Positions 275 to 62,412 of a stretch of 64,000 nt of DNA are shown in pieces. The position numbers were made by a program, and so were the translations under genes. Location of the stretch: positions 71,481 through 135,480 of the forward strand of contig JAFCCL010000002.1 of NCBI GenBank assembly GCA_017610205.1, written 5' to 3'. Numbering within the stretch: position 1 is the first letter of the stretch; each line of letters opens with the position of its first letter. The stretch is from Candidatus Iainarchaeum sp. (GTDB lineage: Archaea; Iainarchaeota; Iainarchaeia; Iainarchaeales; GCA-2688035). The notes beneath the pieces were generated by a model. That model did not search any database. It was given only the letters and a program-made list of their open reading frames with translations, and was not told the origin of the DNA.

Positions 275-1000
275 ATGACATTAAGTCTTTCAACAGGAAG
301 CGTTTGGAAAGCAGTAGACAATCGAATTGAAGGGGTGCATCTTGTAGAAAAATTATTTTCTAGCCTGATTGACGGAGTTGAATTGTGCTTGATTGACCAA
401 AAAGGTTTTGAAGAATTTGAATTGGATAAAAAAAGCATAAAATTTCTTAAAGGAATGAAATTCAATTCACTGCATACACCAAGCAGGGAATATGGAAAAA
501 GCAGGCAAAGTAAAAAAATTCTTGAAAAAATTGACAAAATTAGCCAAATCATAAAACTAGAGCACGTTACATTTCACCCAAATCATGTTAAGGATTTTTC
601 TGCATTAAAAAAATTTGAATTCAAAACATGCATTGAAAACTTGGCGTGTGGAGAAATGCACAAGGGGTGGCAGTTTCCAAAAGAGATAAAGGCATTTCTT
701 GAAAAGGAAAAAGACATTGGTTTCTGCTTTGATGTAAGCCATGCGATGTCAAATGGAATAAACCCAAAAGAATTTTTGGAATTGCTGGGAGAAAGAATTT
801 CATGCATCCACCTTAGTGCAATTGAAAAAGAAGGAAGGGAAAATCACAAGTTTGTTTTTAATTCAAGCAAACAAGCACAGAAAAAAATTGAGCCGGTTTT
901 TACTTTTGGTGTTCCTTTAATCATAGAAGTTGCCCTTGAAAAAGAAAAAATCCCGCTAATAAAAAAAGAGATATCTTTTGTAAGAAAAAAACTCGGTTAA
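275..1000 (+). CDS. Xylose-isomerase-like TIM barrel / AP endonuclease family 2 (EndoIV-like) protein
   Basis: 241 aa. Motifs NSLHTP, VTFHPNH, IENLA, CFDVSHA and IHLS match the EndoIV / sugar-phosphate isomerase metal-binding pattern. Confidence 0.5.
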   Translation: MTLSLSTGSVWKAVDNRIEGVHLVEKLFSSLIDGVELCLIDQKGFEEFELDKKSIKFLKGMKFNSLHTPSREYGKSRQSKKILEKIDKISQIIKLEHVTFHPNHVKDFSALKKFEFKTCIENLACGEMHKGWQFPKEIKAFLEKEKDIGFCFDVSHAMSNGINPKEFLELLGERISCIHLSAIEKEGRENHKFVFNSSKQAQKKIEPVFTFGVPLIIEVALEKEKIPLIKKEISFVRKKLG

Positions 1001-11107: not shown

Positions 11108-12247
11108 ATGACTGCAAAGAAGGTAAAAAAAAGAGCAACAAAAGGAACAAAACGCAGAAGACGTTATCTAACAGAAAGAAAAGCAGCAATGCAAATGAAC
11201 ACTATTTACAATATGTTCGAAAAAGGAAAAACAGTAAAGCAGATTAGAAAAAAGCTTGGAATGACATCCGGAAAGTTTAGTTTATATGTAAGTGTCTTAA
11301 GAGAAGGCACTAAAAGAACAAAACCGTCATTCATTCCACCAAAAGGAGTTTACAATTGGAGCAGGGCAAAAGCAAGAAGAGTAGAAAACCTTATAGAATA
11401 TGCAACAAAAATCATTAAGGGAGAAAAAGCTGCTAAAGCCAAACAAAGAAAGCCAGGTGTTGTGCCATGGGCATTGCCAAAAACAGTACATAGAAAAATA
11501 ACTACAGCGCTGATGAAAGACCCCTTCAGAAGCAGCAACGCAATATCAAAAGTGGAAGGAGCTAGCCCTAACACGGTTGTAAGGCAAAGAAGAATACTTG
11601 AAAGCAAAGGACTAATTCCAGTAGTAAGCAGAAGCAAGATAATGAAAAATGCAGAGAGAAAGCCTGAGAGGACAATAGATTATTTAGACAAAAAACGCAG
11701 GAAAACAATACTGGAGGAAAAGAAAAAGGCAATTGAATCAACGGCAAAACGTCTCTACAGAGAAAACAGAGTTGCGTTTGATGGAACAGATGCCCTGCCA
11801 GAACAAATACCTGAAGAAATAGCTGAAAGAATGGAGTGGAGGCTAAGAACATTTAATCCAAAGAACTGGAAGGGTTCAGAAAAAGTTAAAGTAAACAAGT
11901 TCTTTTATTCTGCACTAAGCAGCATTAAATTCGATATAAGAAGAACTGCTTGGAAACAATATTCAAGGCAAAAATTGGAATCGCTTGAAACAGGAATGGA
12001 AGAAAAACAAGACAGGAAACGTACTCTACAGGCAAAACCAGAATCCAAAGAAATCACAGTAAAACAACTGGAAATGATAAGCGATGGATTAAAATTAAAT
12101 CTTTTGGAAAAGGCAGTTTTGTTTGGACACGCAGCAGGCTTAACTGGGAGCAAAATAGCAGAAGTAACAGGATACAGTGAAGCAAGAATCAATCAAAAAA
12201 AATTCGAGTATCAAAAGAGAATACAGAAAATAATTTCAAAAAAGTGA
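11108..12247 (+). CDS. K/R-rich hypothetical protein with C-terminal sigma-70-region-4/NUMOD-like HTH
   Basis: 379 aa with a very basic N-terminus. C-terminus LLEKAVLFGHAAGLTGSKIAEVTGYSEARINQKKFEYQKRIQKI fits the r4-type HTH pattern. SD AAAGGAG precedes the ATG. Confidence 0.4.
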   Translation: MTAKKVKKRATKGTKRRRRYLTERKAAMQMNTIYNMFEKGKTVKQIRKKLGMTSGKFSLYVSVLREGTKRTKPSFIPPKGVYNWSRAKARRVENLIEYATKIIKGEKAAKAKQRKPGVVPWALPKTVHRKITTALMKDPFRSSNAISKVEGASPNTVVRQRRILESKGLIPVVSRSKIMKNAERKPERTIDYLDKKRRKTILEEKKKAIESTAKRLYRENRVAFDGTDALPEQIPEEIAERMEWRLRTFNPKNWKGSEKVKVNKFFYSALSSIKFDIRRTAWKQYSRQKLESLETGMEEKQDRKRTLQAKPESKEITVKQLEMISDGLKLNLLEKAVLFGHAAGLTGSKIAEVTGYSEARINQKKFEYQKRIQKIISKK

Positions 12248-17603: not shown

Positions 17604-17688
17604 TCCAAATAGAATACGCCAACGGACTAAAAAAGGTTTTCCCCAAGCAAAAATGTTCTACTTTTCAATTGAAAAAAAGTAAGAAGGT

Positions 17689-17760
17689 TGAACCCTGCGG
17701 AAATTGAACCCGCGGTCTCCCAATTGCCAACCGAGCGTCATACCACTAGATTAAGAGCCC
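17689..17760 (-). tRNA. Degenerate tRNA-Ala(GGC)-like copy (probable tRNA pseudogene)
   Basis: 72 nt, about 85% identical to the tRNA-Ala at 18107-18178. It has 3 G.U pairs in the acceptor stem, a broken D-stem, and a weakened anticodon stem. Confidence 0.4.
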
Positions 17761-17917
17761 TTAAGTAAAAAAATAGTTTTGAGAAAGAGTTAAAAATGCG
17801 AACGAACTGAGTTCGTGTCATCGAGCCCAAGTGAAATGTGTCATTGAGTCCAAACGAAGATGGCACTCTGACCAGCCGGCAGTGGCGGCTCCCACACCAG
17901 CCAAGCGTGACGGCTTT

Positions 17918-18107
17918 GGACCCTGCGGAAATTGAACAGCCTTTTAGAAAAAGGCTGGCTAAAATCACAACTACCACAAGGAACCCATTTCGCTTGGGCT
18001 CAATGGGTCAGTGGACCCTGCGGGAATTGAACAGCCTTTTAGAAAAAGGCTGGCTAAAATCACAACTACCACAAGGAACCCATTTCGCTTGGGCTCAATG
18101 GGTCAGT
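17918..18107. repeat. Two perfect-to-near-perfect 95-bp tandem units, each ending in the 3'-terminal 20-mer of tRNA-Ala
   Basis: Units start at 17918 and 18013; the third 20-mer starts at 18108 and begins the tRNA. Each unit contains an 8-bp hairpin (AGCCTTTTagaAAAAGGCT) and a 7-bp stem (ACCCATT...AATGGGT). Confidence 0.85.
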
Positions 18108-18178
18108 GGACCCTGCGGGAATTGAACCCGCGGTCTCCCGATTGCCAACCGAGCGTCATACCACTAGACTAAGGGCCC
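18107..18178 (-). tRNA. tRNA-Ala(GGC) with G3:U70 identity pair
   Basis: Reverse complement reads GGGCCCTTAGTCTAGTGGTATGACGCTCGGTTGGCAATCGGGAGACCGCGGGTTCAATTCCCGCAGGGTCCA. Anticodon loop is TTGGCAA. CCA is not encoded. Confidence 0.75.
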
Positions 18179-18247: not shown

Positions 18248-18466
18248 TTAAGCGCTTATGAGGACTACGCTGTCGCCTCTAACCATTAGTTTTCCGTATT
18301 TGGTTTTTGGTTCGCCGTTTTCAAGCTGTGTTGCGTTGTCCAAGACAAGATTTAGGTGAACGTCAAATGCCTTTAGTGTTCCGCTTATTTGTATATTTCC
18401 TTTGAGCAAAATAAGTATTTCTTTTCCAAGCGCTTCGTTGAGCATGTCAAATGGTCTGTTTGCCAT
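18248..18466 (-). CDS. Sm-like archaeal protein (SmAP/LSm)
   Basis: 72 aa. GTLKAFDVHLNLVLDNA...VRGDSVVLIS Sm1/Sm2 motifs. Confidence 0.85.
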   Translation of the reverse strand: MANRPFDMLNEALGKEILILLKGNIQISGTLKAFDVHLNLVLDNATQLENGEPKTKYGKLMVRGDSVVLISA

Positions 18467-19801: not shown

Positions 19802-19933
19802 ATTTTTACAGTTCCTAATAGATTGACACCAGCGAAATCAATTAAAAAGTTTATATTGAAATAAAACCATTTAAAAACAATCAATTACCCCTCTTTTCAA
19901 TCAATTACTCCTCTTTTTTTAGAAATTTACAGT

Positions 19934-39917: not shown

Positions 39918-40641
39918 TTATGATTTTTTTCTTATTAGTTCAATTTCATTTTTTAGTAACGGAATTTTTTCTTTTTCAATGTTTACTTCTATTACAAATG
40001 GTTTTTGCAAAGAAAAGACAGGCTGTATTTTTTTCAAGGTTTCAGCATCTGATTCAACAAGCAAGTCGTGGTTTGGATTTCTAGAACGTGTTGCATTTAA
40101 GTGAATGTATTTTATTTTATCTTTCAAATTAACGGCGAATTCTTTTGGTTCTATTCCGTTTGCGATTGCGTGGTTAACGTCAAAGCAAAATCCGAATTTG
40201 CTCCATTTATTGAGGAATGTTTCAAATTCTTTTGGATATTGTCAGCCTTTTCTTTTTTTACCGTTAGGCATATTCTCAATGCACACATTTTTCACAGCTG
40301 ACAGTGCAGAAAAGGCACTTACATGATTTGGATGGAAAGTAACAAATTCAAAATTTACCTGTTTGGATAACGCCCCTAATCTTTTTGAAACTGTTTTTTG
40401 TTTCTTCGTTTTTGCCATAATTGGTTTCTTTTACAGGAACATGCAGCGTATTGAACTCAAGCGAATTCAAAAAATTAATAGATTTTTGGTCAAACTCAAA
40501 TTTGTCAAAATCTTCTTTAAAGATAAAGCAAATTTCAACACCGTCAATTAGCCCATAAAACTCTTTCTCGATAAAATGAAGGTGCTCAAGAATGCTTTCA
40601 GCAACCCTGTAAACACTACCAGTAGATAGGCTAACAATCAT
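39918..40641 (-). pseudogene. Disrupted paralogue of the EndoIV-like TIM-barrel gene at 275-1000
   Basis: The same 241-codon length and about 45-50% aa identity to the 275-1000 product. There is a +1 frameshift near 40348 and an in-frame TGA at 40242-40244, exactly where the paralogue has Trp (HKGWQFP vs KRKG*QYP). Confidence 0.6.
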
Positions 40642-43193: not shown

Positions 43194-43781
43194 ATGGCAA
43201 AGAAAAAACCTGTACAACTAGGCAGGTGGAAGCAAACCACTAAAAGAAGGCGAACCTTTTTTAGAAGGGCTTTGGCTTCAACAGATGCTTCTATAAAGGA
43301 AATTGCAGCACGTTCTGGTGTAAGTCGCGGTACTGCTTATTCCTTTAATAAAAAATTTAAAATAAGGTCAAAAAAAGAAGTCGCTCATTTGGCTGCAAAA
43401 GCTAGACAAAAAGTGAGAGCCACTAGGAGAGAAAAAATTTTGTCCTTTTCCTTTGAAGAAAAACAAGTCCTTCTCGCACAACACAAGCCGGCTCTTATTT
43501 CTGTTGTTAAAAAATGGTGGAGTTCAAAATCAATCAAGAAAGAATTCGGAGAATTTAAAGATTTCTACCAAGAAATGAGTAACTATGTCTTTGAACAGCT
43601 TGATTACTATAACCCAAAATACTTGATTGAGGGAAAACCTAGAAGCGTTCTTAGCTGGATGATGGACGGTGCAAAAATCTTCTGCAAACGGTCCTATAAA
43701 TATGCATCAGAAAAAAGAGAAAAAGAGATGCCACGTGACAAAAAAGATCGGTTTTATTCCGAAGTTGAAATCGTAACATAA
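43194..43781 (+). CDS. Basic HTH protein
   Basis: N-terminal K/R-rich stretch, then TDASIKEIAARSGVSRGTAYSF HTH. Confidence 0.4.
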   Translation: MAKKKPVQLGRWKQTTKRRRTFFRRALASTDASIKEIAARSGVSRGTAYSFNKKFKIRSKKEVAHLAAKARQKVRATRREKILSFSFEEKQVLLAQHKPALISVVKKWWSSKSIKKEFGEFKDFYQEMSNYVFEQLDYYNPKYLIEGKPRSVLSWMMDGAKIFCKRSYKYASEKREKEMPRDKKDRFYSEVEIVT

Positions 43782-43799
43782 TCTAGAGGTAAATCACGC

Positions 43800-44120
43800 T
43801 TGATTCCAAAATTTGGATTATCGGAAATCCCTAATCCGACAAAGAGTTTTCTAAGACGTCTTGGGTTTAACCTTCAACAAGTTAGAGAGTTTGGCTTTGA
43901 AGAAATCAAAGAACAACTGCTTAAAATTTCTAATTCTGAGAAAACAGGGTTAAATAAAAGGGAAAAGCAAGTTGTAAAATTAAGGCTTGATGGAAAAGAC
44001 GGTTCTGAAATAGGAAAAGCTTTGAGTAGCAGTAGGCAGTGGGCTAGTAAGTTTCATACAAGTGCAATAAAAAAGATAAAAATACAGCTTGAAAAAAAGC
44101 GCCCTTCCTCTGGGACTTAA
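43800..44120 (+). CDS. Small sigma-70-region-4/LuxR-like HTH protein
   Basis: LNKREKQVVKLRLDGKDGSEIGKALSSSRQWASKFHTSAIKKIK. The stop overlaps the mcm stop convergently. Confidence 0.4.
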   Translation: MIPKFGLSEIPNPTKSFLRRLGFNLQQVREFGFEEIKEQLLKISNSEKTGLNKREKQVVKLRLDGKDGSEIGKALSSSRQWASKFHTSAIKKIKIQLEKKRPSSGT

Positions 44121-47100
44121 TCCTTCCTTGTTGGCTTTAAGAAATTGTGCCTTGGCCTGTATAATTCACCATTCTTTTCAAGCTTTTGAATCAGGTCTCT
44201 CGCCCTTTCCTTATCAATGCCTTCAGAAACAGCTTCGTTTAATACATCCTGCAATGGAACATTGTCCATTTCAGCTGCCTTTTCTCTCAAAATTGAAAGA
44301 ATCTTTCTCATATTTGTTATCTGAGTATGAGTTTGTCCGGTCATAATAATGTCATAATCTATTTTTCCTGTTTCAGGATCTGTTACAACATCGCTCAAAC
44401 TTGCCTTAACAAGCTTTATAGCTCTTTCAGCATCCTCTTTTTCAGCAGTGTCTGAAAGCCTTATTCTTGCACTTGCCTCTGCAAGCCTTACAAGCCCTTC
44501 AAGCTGCCTGTGAGTAGCAGCATAGCTTCCCTCTTTTCTGCCAATATCCCTTAAACCAATATAAAAATCCCCAATTGCCTGAATTGCTTCCTTGCTCATC
44601 ACAGGAAAAATATTTTGCCTTGTAAAAGAAATGTACTTTCCCAAAAGCTCTGGGTCAACAGGCGGGGTTGAAATTAATTCAATGTCTTCCTGGTCTTCCT
44701 TTTTGAGAGCATTTCCTTTTTTCTTGTACTGTGAAATTAATTCACCGCTTTTGTGAGTTTTCAAAATGTGTGCTGTTATGGCTTCGTCCTTTGTCCTGTC
44801 CAACACATCCTTTATCATAAAGAAAAGGTCAAATCGTGAAATAAGCGATGCAGGCAAATTAATTTGTTCAATGAAAGGAGTATATTGTTCAAACCTTGAC
44901 ATTTTGGGGTTTGCAGCAGCAAGAATGCTTGTGTCAGATTTAAACCTTGTTACAATTCCGGCTTTTGCAACCGAAATCATTCCCTGCTCCATTGCCTCGT
45001 GCATTGCACTTCTGTCCTCTGCATCCATTTTGTCCAATTCATCAACCATGCAGATTCCGCCACTGCTTAAAACAAGAGCTCCTGCTTTTAGAGTCCAGCC
45101 TCCTTCACCAAAATCATCCTTAACAGCCGAGGCAGTGTTATGGACAAAAATTCCATTTGCAATAAAATTATGATCTTTTTTAACAGAAAAATCGTAAACA
45201 AATTCATAGCATGGCTTGAAGCATTCTTTTTCTGACACCTCTTCCCATAGGATATCAGATTTTGCAAGCTGTTTAAGCAATAAATTATTAAAAGATTTTT
45301 TTCTAACAAACTTTTGAAGTTTTTTTCTTGAAATGTTTAACCTTCCACTGCTGTAAATCCATTCTGCGTTTTGGTTTTTTAGCAATTGATGTATACTTGG
45401 AATTATATCAATGTTTGTATTTTCCTCAGGTGCTTTTGAAATAAGTTCTCTTAACTTTTTCTTTTTTTCTACAAGATTGAATCCTATTTGCTTTTCAAAT
45501 GTTTCAATGTTTTTTTTGCCTCTTATTTCAGTATAATACTGGTCATGGCTGCTTGTTACAGAAATTTTTTTTTCTACGGCAATTTTTTCGGCCTTTTTCC
45601 TTTTTCTCAGCTTGCTCTGGATTCCAAATTTAAGCAATGCCAAATGAAGACTTTTTGCAAGCCCTTTGCTTATTGTAGTAATTCCAACACTTGAAGAATA
45701 GTTTTTCCCAATGACAACCCAGCCATCAGTATCAAAAAGACCTTGTAACAACTTTGCCAAAATATTATTTGGCATTTCTGTTGCAAGATGCGAGATTCTT
45801 ATCCTGGTTTTGTCACGATTAAGCCCAAATGCCTTCAATAGCTCACATACAACCCTATAGCTGATTCTTCTCGCAGGCACTCTAAAACCGTCGTTAATTT
45901 TTTCAGGAAGCAAACCAAACAGTTCCAAAGATATGGCATCAATTTCTTGTAGCAGTTGTTCAGTAGCACTGAATATTCTTATTGTTGAGGTGCCGTTGCC
46001 TTTTTCCCAAAGGCTTCCGTCTCCAAGCGCAAGACCTGCAAGATATGCAAGTTTTTCATTATCAAGGTATATTGGAATTTTCATTGGCTTTCCATGGTTT
46101 ACAAAAACCTCAGAAATCTGTTTTGATATGTCCTCCAAAGAAAACCCAGCTTCTTGACTCAATTCAATTAAATTTTTAAGAGAAATTGCATGATAGTGTC
46201 GTTTGTTTCTTATAGCATAGATGGTATCCCTGCTTTTGCCAATTTTTTTTGCTATTTTCTGCAAAGACCCGTAATCTTTAACAAGAATGTCTGTTATTTC
46301 TTTCAGTAATTCAGCAACATTATCTTTCACCAGAATGTTTTTGTCATTGGCAAGCAAGCTTATTGAAGGAATGTTTTTTTTGTTTCCTTCAGGCAATTTT
46401 CTTGGACACGCAACAAAATCCCCTTTTCCAAGGTCTTCTGATTTAACCCATTCAATTTTGTTGTCTTTTAATCTAACAAGCGAAGTGTTTGGAGTGAGCT
46501 CTATTTCTTTCCCAAGCCTTGTTTTAATTCTAATCATTTCTTCAGGTGCCTTTATTTTCCAAATTTTGTAAATATCTTCCTTTTCAAGCTTCAACTTTGA
46601 ACCCAAACAATGGCTTTTTCCGCTAAAATTATTTGCCCAAGCATTTGGAATTTCTTCAACCGAATTTTCTTCACAAAAATTTTCTTCAACAAAATCCTTA
46701 ATTGGCTTGAAACCGTTGTCATTAAGAATTAAGGAATCCGGAGCTACACACAAACCCACACCAGAAGTTGTCTTTCCAGCAGTGTAAATGCTTCTTGGAG
46801 CAATATTGTGAGAAGACTGAAGGATTTGACTCTTTCCTGTTCCAGGATCTCCAACCAGCAAAACATGAACATTGCCCCTGATGGTTTGGTTTCCCGGCAA
46901 ATGCTTTTTGACTCCTCCAAAAAGCTGCAGTATAATTGATTCCTTTACAGTTTCGTGCCCATAAATTGCAGGCGCAATGCTTTTTGTAAGCTTTTCATAA
47001 ATTTCAGGATTTTCTGCCAAAGCCCTTATTTCGTTCTCCTCCTCAGGCGTTACCTCAACAGATTCAAATTCCCGCTGGGTTTCCTCCAAATGCAATGCCT

Positions 47101-47833
47101 CCAAATACCTTCCATAAATTGTTTTCTTTTTGTCAGGCAAAGCAAGCCTTAAAATTCCAACAAACCTTGTTTTGTCACCTGCACTAATTCTGTTAACCAA
47201 ATCGTCTGCAATATAAATATTAAGAGTTGAAGCCTGTTCATTTCCCTTAAGCTTTTCCAAAGGCTCCTGAATTTCAATTCTTTGACTGTCAATAAATTCT
47301 GATTGCTCTGGCACAAGCTCAAAGTCTCTGTGCCTGCACTCGCAAAAAGAAGGCATTTGAAGCTGCTGGTTATCCTGCTTTTTCTTATAAGTGTTGCCAC
47401 AGTGCTTGCATTTCCACACTGCAAGCTGTAATTTTGGCATAACTGTTGTAATTTGCCTTACAATACCTTCAACAGCAATAAGCTTTCCCAACTGCTTTGC
47501 ACTAATGTCTCTGACAAGGGGCTCGTGTTCTTTTGGCAAATTAAAAAAACGAACGTGTGGTGAAAATTTTTCAATTTCAAGAGCAGGAACCTCTATTTGT
47601 TCAACTGCATCCTTTGCAGCCTCCAAAAGAAGTTCAGGGCGGTCAAGAACTGCATCAGCAAGCTCTATGTCAAACCTCTCCAAAAGAGTAAAGTCAATAT
47701 CAAGGCTTCTTTTGTCAGGATAGTTTTCAACAAGCCTTTCAAGCTCTCTTTTGTAATTTGCTTCAAAAAATTCCAAGAATTTGGAAACGTAAGGGCTTTC
47801 ACTGTCCTCCCTGATTTTTTCCTCCAAAGACAT
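44117..47833 (-). CDS. mcm: MCM replicative helicase containing a 538-aa LAGLIDADG intein
   Basis: 1238 aa. Zn finger CKHCG...CEC, Walker A GDPGTGKSQ, arginine finger SRFDL. The intein lies between ...TSGVGL and TASAVKDD.... Confidence 0.9.
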   Translation of the reverse strand: MSLEEKIREDSESPYVSKFLEFFEANYKRELERLVENYPDKRSLDIDFTLLERFDIELADAVLDRPELLLEAAKDAVEQIEVPALEIEKFSPHVRFFNLPKEHEPLVRDISAKQLGKLIAVEGIVRQITTVMPKLQLAVWKCKHCGNTYKKKQDNQQLQMPSFCECRHRDFELVPEQSEFIDSQRIEIQEPLEKLKGNEQASTLNIYIADDLVNRISAGDKTRFVGILRLALPDKKKTIYGRYLEALHLEETQREFESVEVTPEEENEIRALAENPEIYEKLTKSIAPAIYGHETVKESIILQLFGGVKKHLPGNQTIRGNVHVLLVGDPGTGKSQILQSSHNIAPRSIYTAGKTTSGVGLCVAPDSLILNDNGFKPIKDFVEENFCEENSVEEIPNAWANNFSGKSHCLGSKLKLEKEDIYKIWKIKAPEEMIRIKTRLGKEIELTPNTSLVRLKDNKIEWVKSEDLGKGDFVACPRKLPEGNKKNIPSISLLANDKNILVKDNVAELLKEITDILVKDYGSLQKIAKKIGKSRDTIYAIRNKRHYHAISLKNLIELSQEAGFSLEDISKQISEVFVNHGKPMKIPIYLDNEKLAYLAGLALGDGSLWEKGNGTSTIRIFSATEQLLQEIDAISLELFGLLPEKINDGFRVPARRISYRVVCELLKAFGLNRDKTRIRISHLATEMPNNILAKLLQGLFDTDGWVVIGKNYSSSVGITTISKGLAKSLHLALLKFGIQSKLRKRKKAEKIAVEKKISVTSSHDQYYTEIRGKKNIETFEKQIGFNLVEKKKKLRELISKAPEENTNIDIIPSIHQLLKNQNAEWIYSSGRLNISRKKLQKFVRKKSFNNLLLKQLAKSDILWEEVSEKECFKPCYEFVYDFSVKKDHNFIANGIFVHNTASAVKDDFGEGGWTLKAGALVLSSGGICMVDELDKMDAEDRSAMHEAMEQGMISVAKAGIVTRFKSDTSILAAANPKMSRFEQYTPFIEQINLPASLISRFDLFFMIKDVLDRTKDEAITAHILKTHKSGELISQYKKKGNALKKEDQEDIELISTPPVDPELLGKYISFTRQNIFPVMSKEAIQAIGDFYIGLRDIGRKEGSYAATHRQLEGLVRLAEASARIRLSDTAEKEDAERAIKLVKASLSDVVTDPETGKIDYDIIMTGQTHTQITNMRKILSILREKAAEMDNVPLQDVLNEAVSEGIDKERARDLIQKLEKNGELYRPRHNFLKPTRKD
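45137..46750 (-). mobile_element. MCM intein with LAGLIDADG homing-endonuclease domain
   Basis: Begins CVAPDSLIL (Cys1) and ends FVHN, with Thr at +1. Internal YLAGLALGDGSL and LLQGLFDTDGWV motifs. Confidence 0.8.
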
Positions 47834-58091: not shown

Positions 58092-58412
58092 GTGGTGATT
58101 TTTTGTATGAATATTACTTTGTCTGTTAGTGGAGAACTTGAAGACTCTGTGAAAACCCACAAACACATTAAGTGGACTGAGATAGCCAGAGAGGCAATGA
58201 GGGAAGAAGTTGAAAGGCTTAAAAAATTAGAAGCCCTTCAAAAGCACCTGGAAAAAAAGCCAATTAGCAGGCAAGAATGGCATTGGATGGAAAAAATTGA
58301 CTGGCACCCTGTTGATGAAATGAAGTACAAGGAAAAATTTGTTAAAGAAAGCCTAAAAGCCGGCAAAGAGAAACCAAAAAAAGTCAAAAGCCTTGACGAA
58401 CTGCTAAAGTGA
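58092..58412 (+). CDS. Putative RHH-type antitoxin
   Basis: ITLSVSGELEDSVK...IAREAMREEVERLKK. The stop overlaps the toxin start (ATGA). Confidence 0.5.
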   Translation: MVIFCMNITLSVSGELEDSVKTHKHIKWTEIAREAMREEVERLKKLEALQKHLEKKPISRQEWHWMEKIDWHPVDEMKYKEKFVKESLKAGKEKPKKVKSLDELLK

Positions 58413-58678
58413 CTCAGATGCCTTTTGAACTTGAAACAACAACCCACTTTGACAAAGCTTATTACAAAAGCGCTAAGAAAAACCGTGAATTAAAAAAAGC
58501 AATTGACAGCAAAGTAAAGCAAATACTTGAAAACCCCTATAGGTTTAAGCCAATGCACAAACCACTGCAAGGCTTTAGACAAGTCCACATAATGAAAAGC
58601 TTTGTATTACTTTATTCAATAAAAGAAAAATCGGTTGTATTAATCAAATTCGAGCACCATGACAAGGCATACAAGTAA
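58409..58678 (+). CDS. RelE/YafQ-family toxin
   Basis: 89 aa. ...GFRQVHIMKSFVLLYSIKEKSVVLIKFEHHDKAY. Confidence 0.65.
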   Translation: MTQMPFELETTTHFDKAYYKSAKKNRELKKAIDSKVKQILENPYRFKPMHKPLQGFRQVHIMKSFVLLYSIKEKSVVLIKFEHHDKAYK

Positions 58679-60992: not shown

Positions 60993-61138
60993 ACATAGTA
61001 GTTTCCACAATCTTCTTGTTCATAATGTCAGTGGTGTTCTTGCAGATTGTAGAACTTAACTTGGAAGACACAGAAATCCTAACCTATGCTGTTGGGTTCT
61101 GTATTGGTATAACAAGTGAGTGGTGGTTTCCAATATGA
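60989..61138 (+). CDS. 49-aa single-TM small protein
   Basis: MNIVVSTIFLFIMSVVFLQIVELNLEDTEILTYAVGFCIGITSEWWFPI. ATGA overlaps at both ends. Confidence 0.35.
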   Translation: MNIVVSTIFLFIMSVVFLQIVELNLEDTEILTYAVGFCIGITSEWWFPI

Positions 61139-62412
61139 AATCACCGGAAACCCACTCTCCAAAGCGCCTTAAAAGGCAAGCGGGAAAATCTATGAGAGTA
61201 AGGAAAATGAACAAGGAAGATTTGACTAAAGAGTTGCTTGAGGAACTTTACAACAAGAAAGGTTTCTCTCTCGACCGAATTGTCAAAGAAGTTGGTTGTG
61301 AAAGAACAATAGTCTACAATCGTTTGAAACAATTTGAGATAAAAATGAGGCCTCCTTATAGAAAAGATCTCAAAATAGAAAAAGAAGTTTTGGAAAAGCT
61401 TTACTGGAAACAAGGATTTTCTTTTGAAGAAACAGGAAAAAAGCTTGGTTGTTGTGGGGCAAATGTTTCTTATTGGATGAAAAAGCATGGAATAGAAACA
61501 AGGCCAATTGGATACAATGAAATTGTAATTCCAAAAGAAACTCTTCAAGAGCTTTATTGGGATAAAAAATTGACAGCACAGCAAATTGGAGAAAAATTTG
61601 GGACTAATCACAGAAGAATTTTAAAAAAGATGAAAAAGGCAGGAATTGCAAGCAGAACATTGTCAGAAGCAGGAACAAAAAAATTCAAAGCGCCATTCAC
61701 AGGCGGCTTAGACGAAAAAGCATTCCTGTTAGGACTTAGAACAGGAGACTTCTACGCAAAACAGCAGCACATATCTGTGAGAATGCAAACTACATCCACA
61801 CATCCAGCACAAGTCGAACTACTAAGAAAGTCACTTGAAAAATATGGCGAAACAAAAACGTACTATAACACAAACAAAGCAAGAGAAGATGAATGGTTTA
61901 TTTATGCTGACCTTGATAAGTCTTTTGAATTTCTTTTAAAGAAACCAAATGAAATCCCTCAATGGATTCTAGAAAATAAGAACTGCTTTTACAGTTTTTT
62001 GTGTGCATATTCAGACTGTGAAGGAAGCTTTAGTATTATCAAAAGCTATGAAAATAGTACGAGGTTTATATTCAGAATAACAGCAGGCGACAAGAAGGTT
62101 CTTGAACAGATAAAAAGCACATTAGAATCTTATGGATACAACCCAAGACTCTACTTTAAGTCAAAGAAGGGCTTACAAGGAACTTTTGGTACATTTAACT
62201 TGGATATGTACAACTTTATAATGTACAAAAAAGAAGAAACACTTAGCTTGATAAAAAATTTATTTCCACACAGCAAACACAAGGAGAAAATTGACAAGAT
62301 GAAATACATTCAAGAAAACAAAGACAAGAACTGGGCTGAAATAATTGGAGGATGGAACAAAATTAGAGAGGGGATAAAAGCAGGGTTGTTAAAAAACAAT
62401 TTACAAGAATAG
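61135..62412 (+). CDS. Free-standing LAGLIDADG-type homing-endonuclease-like protein with three N-terminal NUMOD1/sigma-r4-like HTH repeats
   Basis: Three repeats of the form (L/V)LExLYxxKGFSxxxIxKExG...V..RLKxxGI. The C-terminal domain has LLGLRTGDF and FLCAYSDCEGSF motifs. The ATG at 61135 is coupled to the upstream stop. Confidence 0.6.
   Translation: MKSPETHSPKRLKRQAGKSMRVRKMNKEDLTKELLEELYNKKGFSLDRIVKEVGCERTIVYNRLKQFEIKMRPPYRKDLKIEKEVLEKLYWKQGFSFEETGKKLGCCGANVSYWMKKHGIETRPIGYNEIVIPKETLQELYWDKKLTAQQIGEKFGTNHRRILKKMKKAGIASRTLSEAGTKKFKAPFTGGLDEKAFLLGLRTGDFYAKQQHISVRMQTTSTHPAQVELLRKSLEKYGETKTYYNTNKAREDEWFIYADLDKSFEFLLKKPNEIPQWILENKNCFYSFLCAYSDCEGSFSIIKSYENSTRFIFRITAGDKKVLEQIKSTLESYGYNPRLYFKSKKGLQGTFGTFNLDMYNFIMYKKEETLSLIKNLFPHSKHKEKIDKMKYIQENKDKNWAEIIGGWNKIREGIKAGLLKNNLQE

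Follow-up and report, generated by a model that had tools for sequence, protein, structure and literature searches.

A conserved, structured module bounded by copies of the tRNA 3' end downstream of a tRNA-Ala(GGC) gene in a Diapherotrites archaeon

In a 64-kb stretch of the archaeon Candidatus Iainarchaeum sp. (assembly GCA_017610205.1, contig JAFCCL010000002.1, positions 71,481 to 135,480), here called the window and used for all coordinates, an intact tRNA-Ala(GGC) gene (tRNA 1) is followed on its own strand by two tandem copies of a 95-nt unit, a spacer and a second tRNA-Ala(GGC) gene (tRNA 2; Table 1). All of the features of this locus lie on the minus strand, and each unit ends in a copy of the last 21 nt of tRNA 1 (18127-18107), here called J1. 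The window encodes exosome and proteasome components, L15e, eIF5A, topoisomerase VI, an intein-bearing MCM and an LSm (Sm-like archaeal) protein, and the nearest homologues of the latter that bear a source name come from 'Candidatus Diapherotrites archaeon', a member of the DPANN archaea. Comparison with 52 related loci (178 kb, labelled within the series L001-L055) shows that the unit is a discrete module conserved within this lineage, with a defined anatomy, covarying base pairs, a fold specific to the tRNA strand, and precise presence or absence between relatives, and that it is accompanied by neither recombinase genes nor cargo.

A preliminary description, made from the letters of the stretch, had reported the intact tRNA with its G3:U70 pair and two 95-bp tandem repeats on the tRNA strand, each terminating in the 3'-terminal 20-mer of the tRNA, and these claims hold. 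tRNA-Ala(GGC) genes are called by ARAGORN at 18106-18178 and 17689-17760, and both score above the gathering score of 29 when the Rfam tRNA model (RF00005) is applied to them, as the preliminary description had proposed (65.4 bits for tRNA 1 and 43.1 bits for tRNA 2). Over 17917-18127, Tandem Repeats Finder (TRF) gives a period of 95 nt, 2.2 copies and 99% matches, and a single one of the 95 bases distinguishes the units (18024 C vs 17929 T); it lies in the T-stem part of the J1 copy. Four copies of the 20-mer GTTCAATTYCCGCAGGGTCC lie within 490 bp, where none is expected by chance; the proposed search for additional copies found none elsewhere in the 64 kb at up to three mismatches. The full 21-nt repeat, found at the end of each unit, runs from G53/T54, at the start of the T loop, to A73, and only 74 nt separate one J1 repeat from the next.

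Read from 5' to 3', the unit consists of hairpin 1, an inverted J1 strand (CCUUGUGG.UAGUUG), a U4 tract, hairpin 2 and the direct J1 copy, giving a local order of J1 (of the tRNA), hairpin 1, inverted J1, hairpin 2 and J1. Hairpin 1 has an 8-bp stem, a loop with tandem G-A/A-G mismatches and a 2-bp inner stem. The inverted strand, an imperfect copy of the whole J1, is predicted to pair with the direct copy in a long, G-U-rich stem of 13 bp (8+5 bp) that leaves UCCA unpaired. The tRNA pairs 4-7/66-69 and 49-52/62-65 recur in this helix as one continuous stem, in which the T-loop bases are also paired. The U4 tract (18056-18059 and 17961-17964, minus strand) is invariant in eight of eight aligned units and has the Sm-site-like form R-R-UUUU-N in a linker predicted to be single-stranded; without exception, the LSm gene (18248-18466) is the immediate upstream neighbour of the locus.

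The window unit is predicted to fold at -37.5 kcal/mol (z = -4.65). Folding into two hairpins had been proposed for it; the strong fold is borne out, with three helices, the third formed by the J1 copy and its upstream strand. When five orthologous units were folded independently, four adopted the same architecture (z -3.3 to -6.3). In an alignment of eight sequences from six lineages, 94% of the cells are paired, and both partners have changed in seven pairs (hairpin 1 has five of these and hairpin 2 has two), compared with a shuffle mean of 2.6; none of 500 shuffles reached seven, and slid controls gave at most one. Substitutions in the long stem are confined to C/U and A/G exchanges that keep pairing with the invariant J1 copy. 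In six of six units, the predicted fold of the tRNA strand is more stable than that of the complement by 7-11 kcal/mol and, because the long-stem pairs are G-U, the fold exists on the tRNA strand only. Identity of the unit body to that of the window is 0.81-0.94, vs 0.63-0.77 for synonymous third positions of LSm in the same genomes. Altogether, these data argue for purifying selection on the RNA-level structure of the unit, and its cross-species conservation at one locus, together with the covariation, speaks against a scar in decay.

Known RNA families do not account for the unit. In Rfam scans at gathering scores and at E <= 10, the window region and L007 returned only tRNAs and chance-level matches; the unit matched neither the tRNA model, even at E <= 10, nor the mascRNA model, and no C/D or H/ACA boxes were found on reading its sequence. 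The lack of a tRNA match at E <= 10 indicates that the 95-nt units are not tRNA genes. A split, permuted or decayed whole tRNA was also considered, and the similarity of the unit body to tRNA positions 1-52 was not significant in global and local alignments (1000 shuffles); because the body retains no likeness to the 5' two-thirds of the tRNA, descent of the unit from a decayed whole tRNA is rejected. Three smaller candidates were set aside in the same way: an acceptor-like register with G3:U70 occurs in the window's unit and is missing from L001 and L004, a promoter-like motif inside hairpin 2 (TTTTTCTAAAA) is not kept in L043 or L007, and an anticodon-like loop in hairpin 2 (UUUCUAA) is not conserved.

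Among relatives, a single unit directly follows tRNA-Ala(GGC) in L001, L004/L005, L043-L045 and L007 (GCA_041645325.1), in genomes whose LSm is 88-100% identical to that of the window. The L007 unit is 139 nt long, with an enlarged hairpin 2 region, and L006 carries a variant that is placed after a spacer-type module (the s module described below) and is devoid of the T-loop bases. In L001, the repeat extends 9 nt beyond the tRNA. A comparison of related genomes for occupied and empty sites had been suggested and turned out to be informative: L055 (LSm 96%) shares the L004/L005 context on both sides of the tRNA, minus exactly the 94-nt unit, and thus represents an empty site. L003 and L049 also lack the unit and have an s module directly after the tRNA. 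Copy number in the clade is therefore 0, 1 or 2. A ubiquitous genome-wide repeat, a possibility raised at the outset, is not supported. In the window, a covariance model built from eight units (R1) and run with filters off recovered no copies beyond the two already known, and in the 52 related loci it recovered only syntenic ones. GTDB representative genomes, a set that does not include the window's own genome, were scanned with a strict pattern, which matched one Diapherotrites genome once (JBAZQI01, a syntenic copy), along with three chance hits in bacteria.

Table 1. Features of the tRNA-Ala(GGC) locus and its borders, in window coordinates
Feature	Position	Strand	Basis or remark
LSm (Sm-like archaeal protein) gene	18248-18466	-	Pfam PF01423, E = 1.3e-20; directly upstream of tRNA 1
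TATA-like box CTTTTTTAAAC of putative promoter P1	18205-18215	-	Read from sequence
tRNA-Ala(GGC) copy 1 (tRNA 1), intact, G3:U70	18107-18178	-	Rfam 65.4 bits
Unit 1, 95 nt	18012-18106	-	TRF, fold, covariance model R1 (115 bits), covariation counts
Hairpin 1 of unit 1	18104-18077	-	Begins 2 nt past the tRNA discriminator base
J1-complementary strand of unit 1	18076-18063	-	Fold
U4 tract of unit 1	18059-18056	-	Invariant
Hairpin 2 of unit 1	18052-18032	-	Variable in sequence and length
Direct J1 copy of unit 1	18032-18012	-	21 nt
Unit 2, 95 nt	17917-18011	-	TRF, covariance model R1
Spacer, 156 nt	17761-17916	-	Between unit 2 and tRNA 2
s module, GC-rich part of spacer (58% GC)	17811-17916	-	Repeat families D11, I1, I2, I8, I9; homologous modules in relatives
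Small hairpin (17816-17802) followed by TCGCATTTTTAAC	17789-17816	-	Terminator-like scan; putative roles in text
tRNA-Ala(GGC) copy 2 (tRNA 2), paralogue	17689-17760	-	Rfam 43.1 bits
T7 run	17672-17678	-	Read from sequence, 11 nt past tRNA 2; likely archaeal terminator
Coiled-coil protein gene, 543 aa	15972-17603	-	Open reading frame list; right-hand syntenic border

The second tRNA had been described as a decayed copy with multiple stem mismatches. A second tRNA-Ala gene is indeed present at that position, and it is less decayed than proposed. In six relatives, the tRNA matches tRNA 1 at 72 of 72 positions. Five transitions set tRNA 2 apart from tRNA 1 (C5T, G10A, C39T, C71T and, in the T stem, C60T), and close relatives have none of them. 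Four of the five convert G-C to G-U pairs, leaving A10-C25 as the sole mismatch, and the gene still folds as a cloverleaf. The T-stem variant of tRNA 2 is found again in the J1 copies of unit 2 and of the L001 unit, which is consistent with recombination among J1 copies. tRNA 2 is preceded by an s module and then GCATTTTTAAC, a context that we call ancestral in L004, L055, L007 and L049; the GCATTTTTAAC motif itself is kept upstream of tRNA-Ala in L004, L007, L043 and L049. Within TCGCATTTTTAAC, a T5 run likely terminates the upstream transcript, and the same bases may serve as the TATA-like box of a second promoter, P2. tRNA 2 is read as a paralogue that arose by local segmental duplication or by recombination among the repeated modules, and its substitutions suggest that it is probably decaying under relaxed constraint. 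In L012 (1440-1586) and L054 (2885-3027), the syntenic tRNA-Ala(GGC) contains an intron of ~75-80 nt after the anticodon loop, and these genes were missed by ARAGORN.

The spacer between unit 2 and tRNA 2 had been described as 155 bp long and GC-rich. It is 156 nt long, and its GC-rich part is homologous to modules in relatives. This part, the s module, belongs to a family with a 5' hairpin (AGCCG-NCACNNN-CGGCU), a variable hairpin and a conserved tail, which flanks tRNA-Ala in Diapherotrites relatives. In the window, it contains two 5' hairpins of the form AGCCG-NCACNNN-YGGCU (17915-17899 and 17890-17874), followed by two tandem 23-nt reverse-complement copies of the unit's hairpin 1 (17858-17838 and 17835-17815), which make up its variable part. 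Between relatives, the 5' hairpin covaries (A-U to C-G or U-G; G-C to U-A), and the number of tandem modules varies, with three in L046 (808-1100) and two in L047 (1502-1700). Other s modules are found in L012 (1190-1390 and 1587-1670), and one in L007 (3219-3300) is intergenic, unlinked and equipped with its own TATA-like box. No match to s modules was found in Rfam, and they possibly represent an undescribed small RNA (sRNA) family. The two reverse-complement copies face the hairpin 1 sites of the two units (18077-18104 and 17982-18009); the predicted duplex (-33.7 kcal/mol) was reached by 0 of 500 shuffles, and hairpin 1 and the s module also pair in the predicted fold of the whole presumed transcript. 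This complementarity could reflect antisense pairing within one transcript or the trace of an inverted duplication. A small hairpin pair (GTTGCCGTTCCGGCAAC and GTTGCGC-NNN-GCGCAAC) is inserted at differing s-module positions among relatives, namely inside the 5' hairpin loop in L003 (385-430) and L006 (1563-1600) and in the variable hairpin in L012 (1310-1350), and thus behaves like a tiny insertion module.

The reading that we hold to be probable, if only just, is that the unit is a conserved RNA module of the tRNA trailer, of which whole copies are gained or lost as the 21-nt tRNA-tail repeats recombine or slip. The locus would then be a tRNA-Ala(GGC) transcription unit of a Diapherotrites archaeon in which the 3' trailer carries a structured module of ~95 nt. 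The module would be co-transcribed with the tRNA from promoter P1, the TATA-like box of which lies 27-37 nt upstream of tRNA 1 and is kept in L001, L003 and L006. A cut by RNase Z after A73 would create its 5' end, as for the dicistronic tRNA-sRNA precursors of Nanoarchaeum, and the terminal stem with its UCCA tail may act as a processing, stability or protein-binding element. Because the module ends in the last 21 nt of the tRNA, the tRNA and the module or modules form short direct repeats 95 nt apart, which would explain both the empty sites and the near-identical pair. Slippage or unequal recombination between these repeats would remove or add whole modules; the near identity of the two units in the window points to a recent duplication. 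tRNA 2 would have been left by a local segmental duplication or by recombination of modules and would now be drifting. As for the origin of the J1 repeat itself, the data are compatible with an integrase having acted long ago at the T-loop sublocation, and also with successive local inverted and direct duplications pivoting on the hairpins.

Several points weigh against this reading. We infer co-transcription, processing and any RNA function of the unit from the sequence. The aligned sequences number only eight and are related, so the shuffle control overstates the significance of the covariation. The long stem, one strand of which is fixed by the tRNA sequence, consequently shows no double compensatory change, and its complementarity is only modestly above chance in individual species (reached by 5-37 of 500 shuffles). 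Hairpin 2 of the window type holds a T5 run that could end archaeal transcription before the J1 copy. The window unit is closer to those of the distant L006 and L007 (0.94 and 0.92) than to those of the nearer L001 and L004 (0.86 and 0.85), a likeness that could stem from lateral exchange and not from vertical conservation. The two-copy tandem is seen in this one assembly only. Lastly, the T-loop boundary of the repeat and the exact empty site are also predicted by integrase-mediated insertion.

That last point leads to the explanation originally put forward, in which repeated tRNA 3' ends are scars of site-specific integration and excision. In its full form, an integrase-carrying element was inserted at an attachment (att) site running from the T loop to the 3' end of the tRNA, and an internal deletion left ~74 nt and attR as a miniature, cis-mobilizable remnant with no function of its own, from which the tandem pair and the J1-ended cassette of tRNA 2 arose by accretion or att x att recombination. 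We consider this unlikely, while giving it weight. The tRNA 3' repeats do bound a discrete insertion or deletion, with copies numbering 0, 1 or 2, and the 21-nt direct repeat that starts at the T loop is of the kind found at tRNA and ssrA islands (PMC3146451; PMC9897764). L055 is empty exactly where L004/L005 are occupied, the L001 repeat runs 9 nt beyond the tRNA, and each cassette of the window array ends in J1. However, the proposed search for integrase genes came back negative, with no integrase, recombinase or transposase among the 30 window open reading frames (ORFs) searched with Pfam, and no integrase or transposase was found in the flanks of the relatives, where the neighbours are LSm, MinD and the coiled-coil gene. 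Nor was a viral or plasmid attP detected: the junction pattern and the J1 20-mer each had 0 matches in IMG/VR, the junction pattern had 0 matches in JGI metagenomes, blastn against phages gave only a chance 25-nt match (E = 0.9), and blastn against plasmids gave none. The 74 nt between repeats also stand against 9-23 kb in the cited archaeal cases (PMC9897764). In addition, the unit exceeds synonymous-site conservation and has compensatory changes and a strand-specific fold, which a neutral scar would not have. The serial integrations and the integration hotspot that had been suggested are conjectures about how the array arose and do not describe its present state; as a possible origin, the integration reading is partly supported.

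A foldback element resembling a miniature inverted-repeat transposable element, with tRNA-tail-like terminal inverted repeats, a preference for the 3' end of the tRNA and mobilization in trans by a transposase whose gene lies elsewhere, would account for the inverted and direct J1 copies that flank a palindromic hairpin, for precise presence and absence, for the failure of unit similarity to track LSm similarity, and for the differing positions of the small hairpin modules of the region in relatives. We regard it as very improbable. The unit occupies a single locus, with no further copies in the window or in the 178 kb of related loci and with one syntenic match in the sole GTDB representative hit; no transposase was found; and its pairing relies on G-U, which is relevant to RNA and not to DNA inverted repeats. 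The flanking duplication consists of 21 nt of tRNA, which is atypical for a target-site duplication. It is also improbable, though slightly less so, that the second unit, the second tRNA or both are artefacts of assembly, produced by repeat expansion or by a chimera of two co-occurring strains. The tandem pair and the presence of two tRNAs are both found in this window only, metagenomes contain related strains with other arrangements (P1-tRNA-unit in L001; s module-P2-tRNA in L004 and L055), and several related contigs end near the locus. Against this, the unit is present in at least seven independent assemblies, and the junction of J1 with AGCCG... that follows unit 2 occurs naturally in L003, L007, L043 and L049. 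The five substitutions of tRNA 2 occur in no relative and would not be created by a strain chimera, and the one-base difference between the units defines a distinct path.

The trailer-module reading can be placed among known systems, and the element is best filed as a combination of two known things, namely tRNA-tail direct repeats and tRNA-linked small RNA modules. As in the attachment scars of tRNA and transfer-messenger RNA genes, a group that takes in tandem islands and cis-mobilizable remnants lacking an integrase and has examples such as the Dehalococcoides ssrA islands with their 20-bp repeat (PMC3146451) and the tRNA fragments at integrated elements of archaea (PMC9897764), direct repeats of ~20 nt correspond to the 3' end of an RNA gene and start at the T loop, a canonical crossover sublocation of integrases; the intact gene stands at one end with fragments downstream, and cassettes occur in tandem and vary in presence between strains. 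Unlike in such scars, the window's repeats are 74 nt and not kilobases apart, integrase, cargo and detectable attP are lacking, and the insert is conserved with covariation across species at one locus and holds an inverted copy of the repeat. In Nanoarchaeum equitans, also a DPANN archaeon, sRNA8 lies directly 3' of tRNA-Val and is released by RNase Z (PMC3491384). The window unit resembles this case, and plant tRNA-small nucleolar RNA genes, as a structured, small-RNA-like module that abuts the discriminator and lacks a promoter of its own; it differs in having neither C/D or H/ACA boxes nor an Rfam match and in ending in the tRNA's own 3' copy.

Use of the acceptor and T-stem 3' sequence of a tRNA, with a predicted stem and UCCA, further recalls tRNA-like processing elements such as plant mitochondrial t-elements and MALAT1 mascRNA, the latter of which is processed by RNase P and RNase Z (PMC8457004). 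The window unit is unlike them in having no cloverleaf or free T loop and in missing the first three acceptor pairs, including G3:U70. Its long stem is presumably comparable to the acceptor/T-arm minihelix substrates of RNase P, RNase Z and the CCA-adding enzyme. A tRNA-derived minisatellite had been offered as another possibility and comes close to the present state of the array, in that near-identical 95-nt copies stand head to tail, as after short tandem duplication by slippage, and number 0, 1 or 2 in relatives, while neighbouring s modules also vary in tandem number, reaching three in L046 and two in L047. In contrast to the anonymous sequence of a minisatellite, the repeat unit here is a structured element that is conserved and linked to a tRNA gene. 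More speculatively, and in our view rather unlikely, the unit may represent an undescribed family of archaeal tRNA-trailer RNAs released by RNase Z, with a minihelix-like stem made of the J1 copy and its antisense strand, an encoded UCCA, and a U4 tract bound by the LSm protein encoded upstream. Such RNAs could modulate the maturation of tRNA-Ala, tie up the antisense strand, by which the tRNA would otherwise be unfolded, or pair with s-module RNA through hairpin 1.

Fragments of tRNA 3' ends downstream of tRNA genes are routinely taken to mark where a virus or island has integrated, and its limits are drawn from them. In the window, that signature encloses a 74-nt, structured, species-conserved insert in a region without mobile-element genes. 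Repeats of the tRNA tail can thus be part of a small RNA module under selection as well, and copy-number change nearby, and even turnover of tRNA genes, can result from them, the J1 variant T60 being common to the last unit and tRNA 2. If expressed, the module would join the very few non-coding RNAs catalogued in DPANN archaea as a small RNA that mimics the tRNA tail, and it would provide a concrete substrate for studying the specificity of archaeal RNase Z, RNase P, the CCA-adding enzyme and Sm proteins.

The order MinD-LSm-tRNA-Ala(GGC)-coiled-coil gene, a conserved housekeeping synteny, is shared with L004-L007, L043, L046 and L049. The coiled-coil protein had no match in a Pfam scan, and its gene is orthologous in position in L004, L006, L007, L046 and L049. 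In a search for same-strain contigs, no identical MinD or coiled-coil proteins were found on record, and contigs with the exact LSm sequence were all shorter than 700 nt. ORFs that overlap the array (17838-18125, plus strand; 17738-17977, minus strand) span tRNA and repeat sequence. Elsewhere in the window, a 20-nt tandem repeat (19878-19917; two copies, 95% matches) lies between two conserved hypothetical genes. The MCM helicase gene (44117-47833, minus strand; 1238 aa) is split by an intein with a LAGLIDADG homing-endonuclease domain, and a free-standing ORF of 425 aa (61135-62412, plus strand) combines helix-turn-helix (HTH) and LAGLIDADG-like features, as does a 344-aa ORF just downstream of the coiled-coil gene in L004 (2806-3840). 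Further lysine-rich HTH proteins are encoded at 11108-12247 and 43194-44120. At 58107-58678 (plus strand), a ParE/YafQ-like toxin gene (86 aa) follows a 101-aa ORF with no Pfam match, and the two form a probable type II toxin-antitoxin pair. Lastly, the ORFs at 275-1000 (plus strand) and 40348-40641 (minus strand; 97 aa) have similar N-termini (MTLSLSTGSVWKAV... and MIVSLSTGSVYRVA...); the former weakly matches the xylose isomerase-like TIM barrel, and the latter is probably a truncated paralogue.

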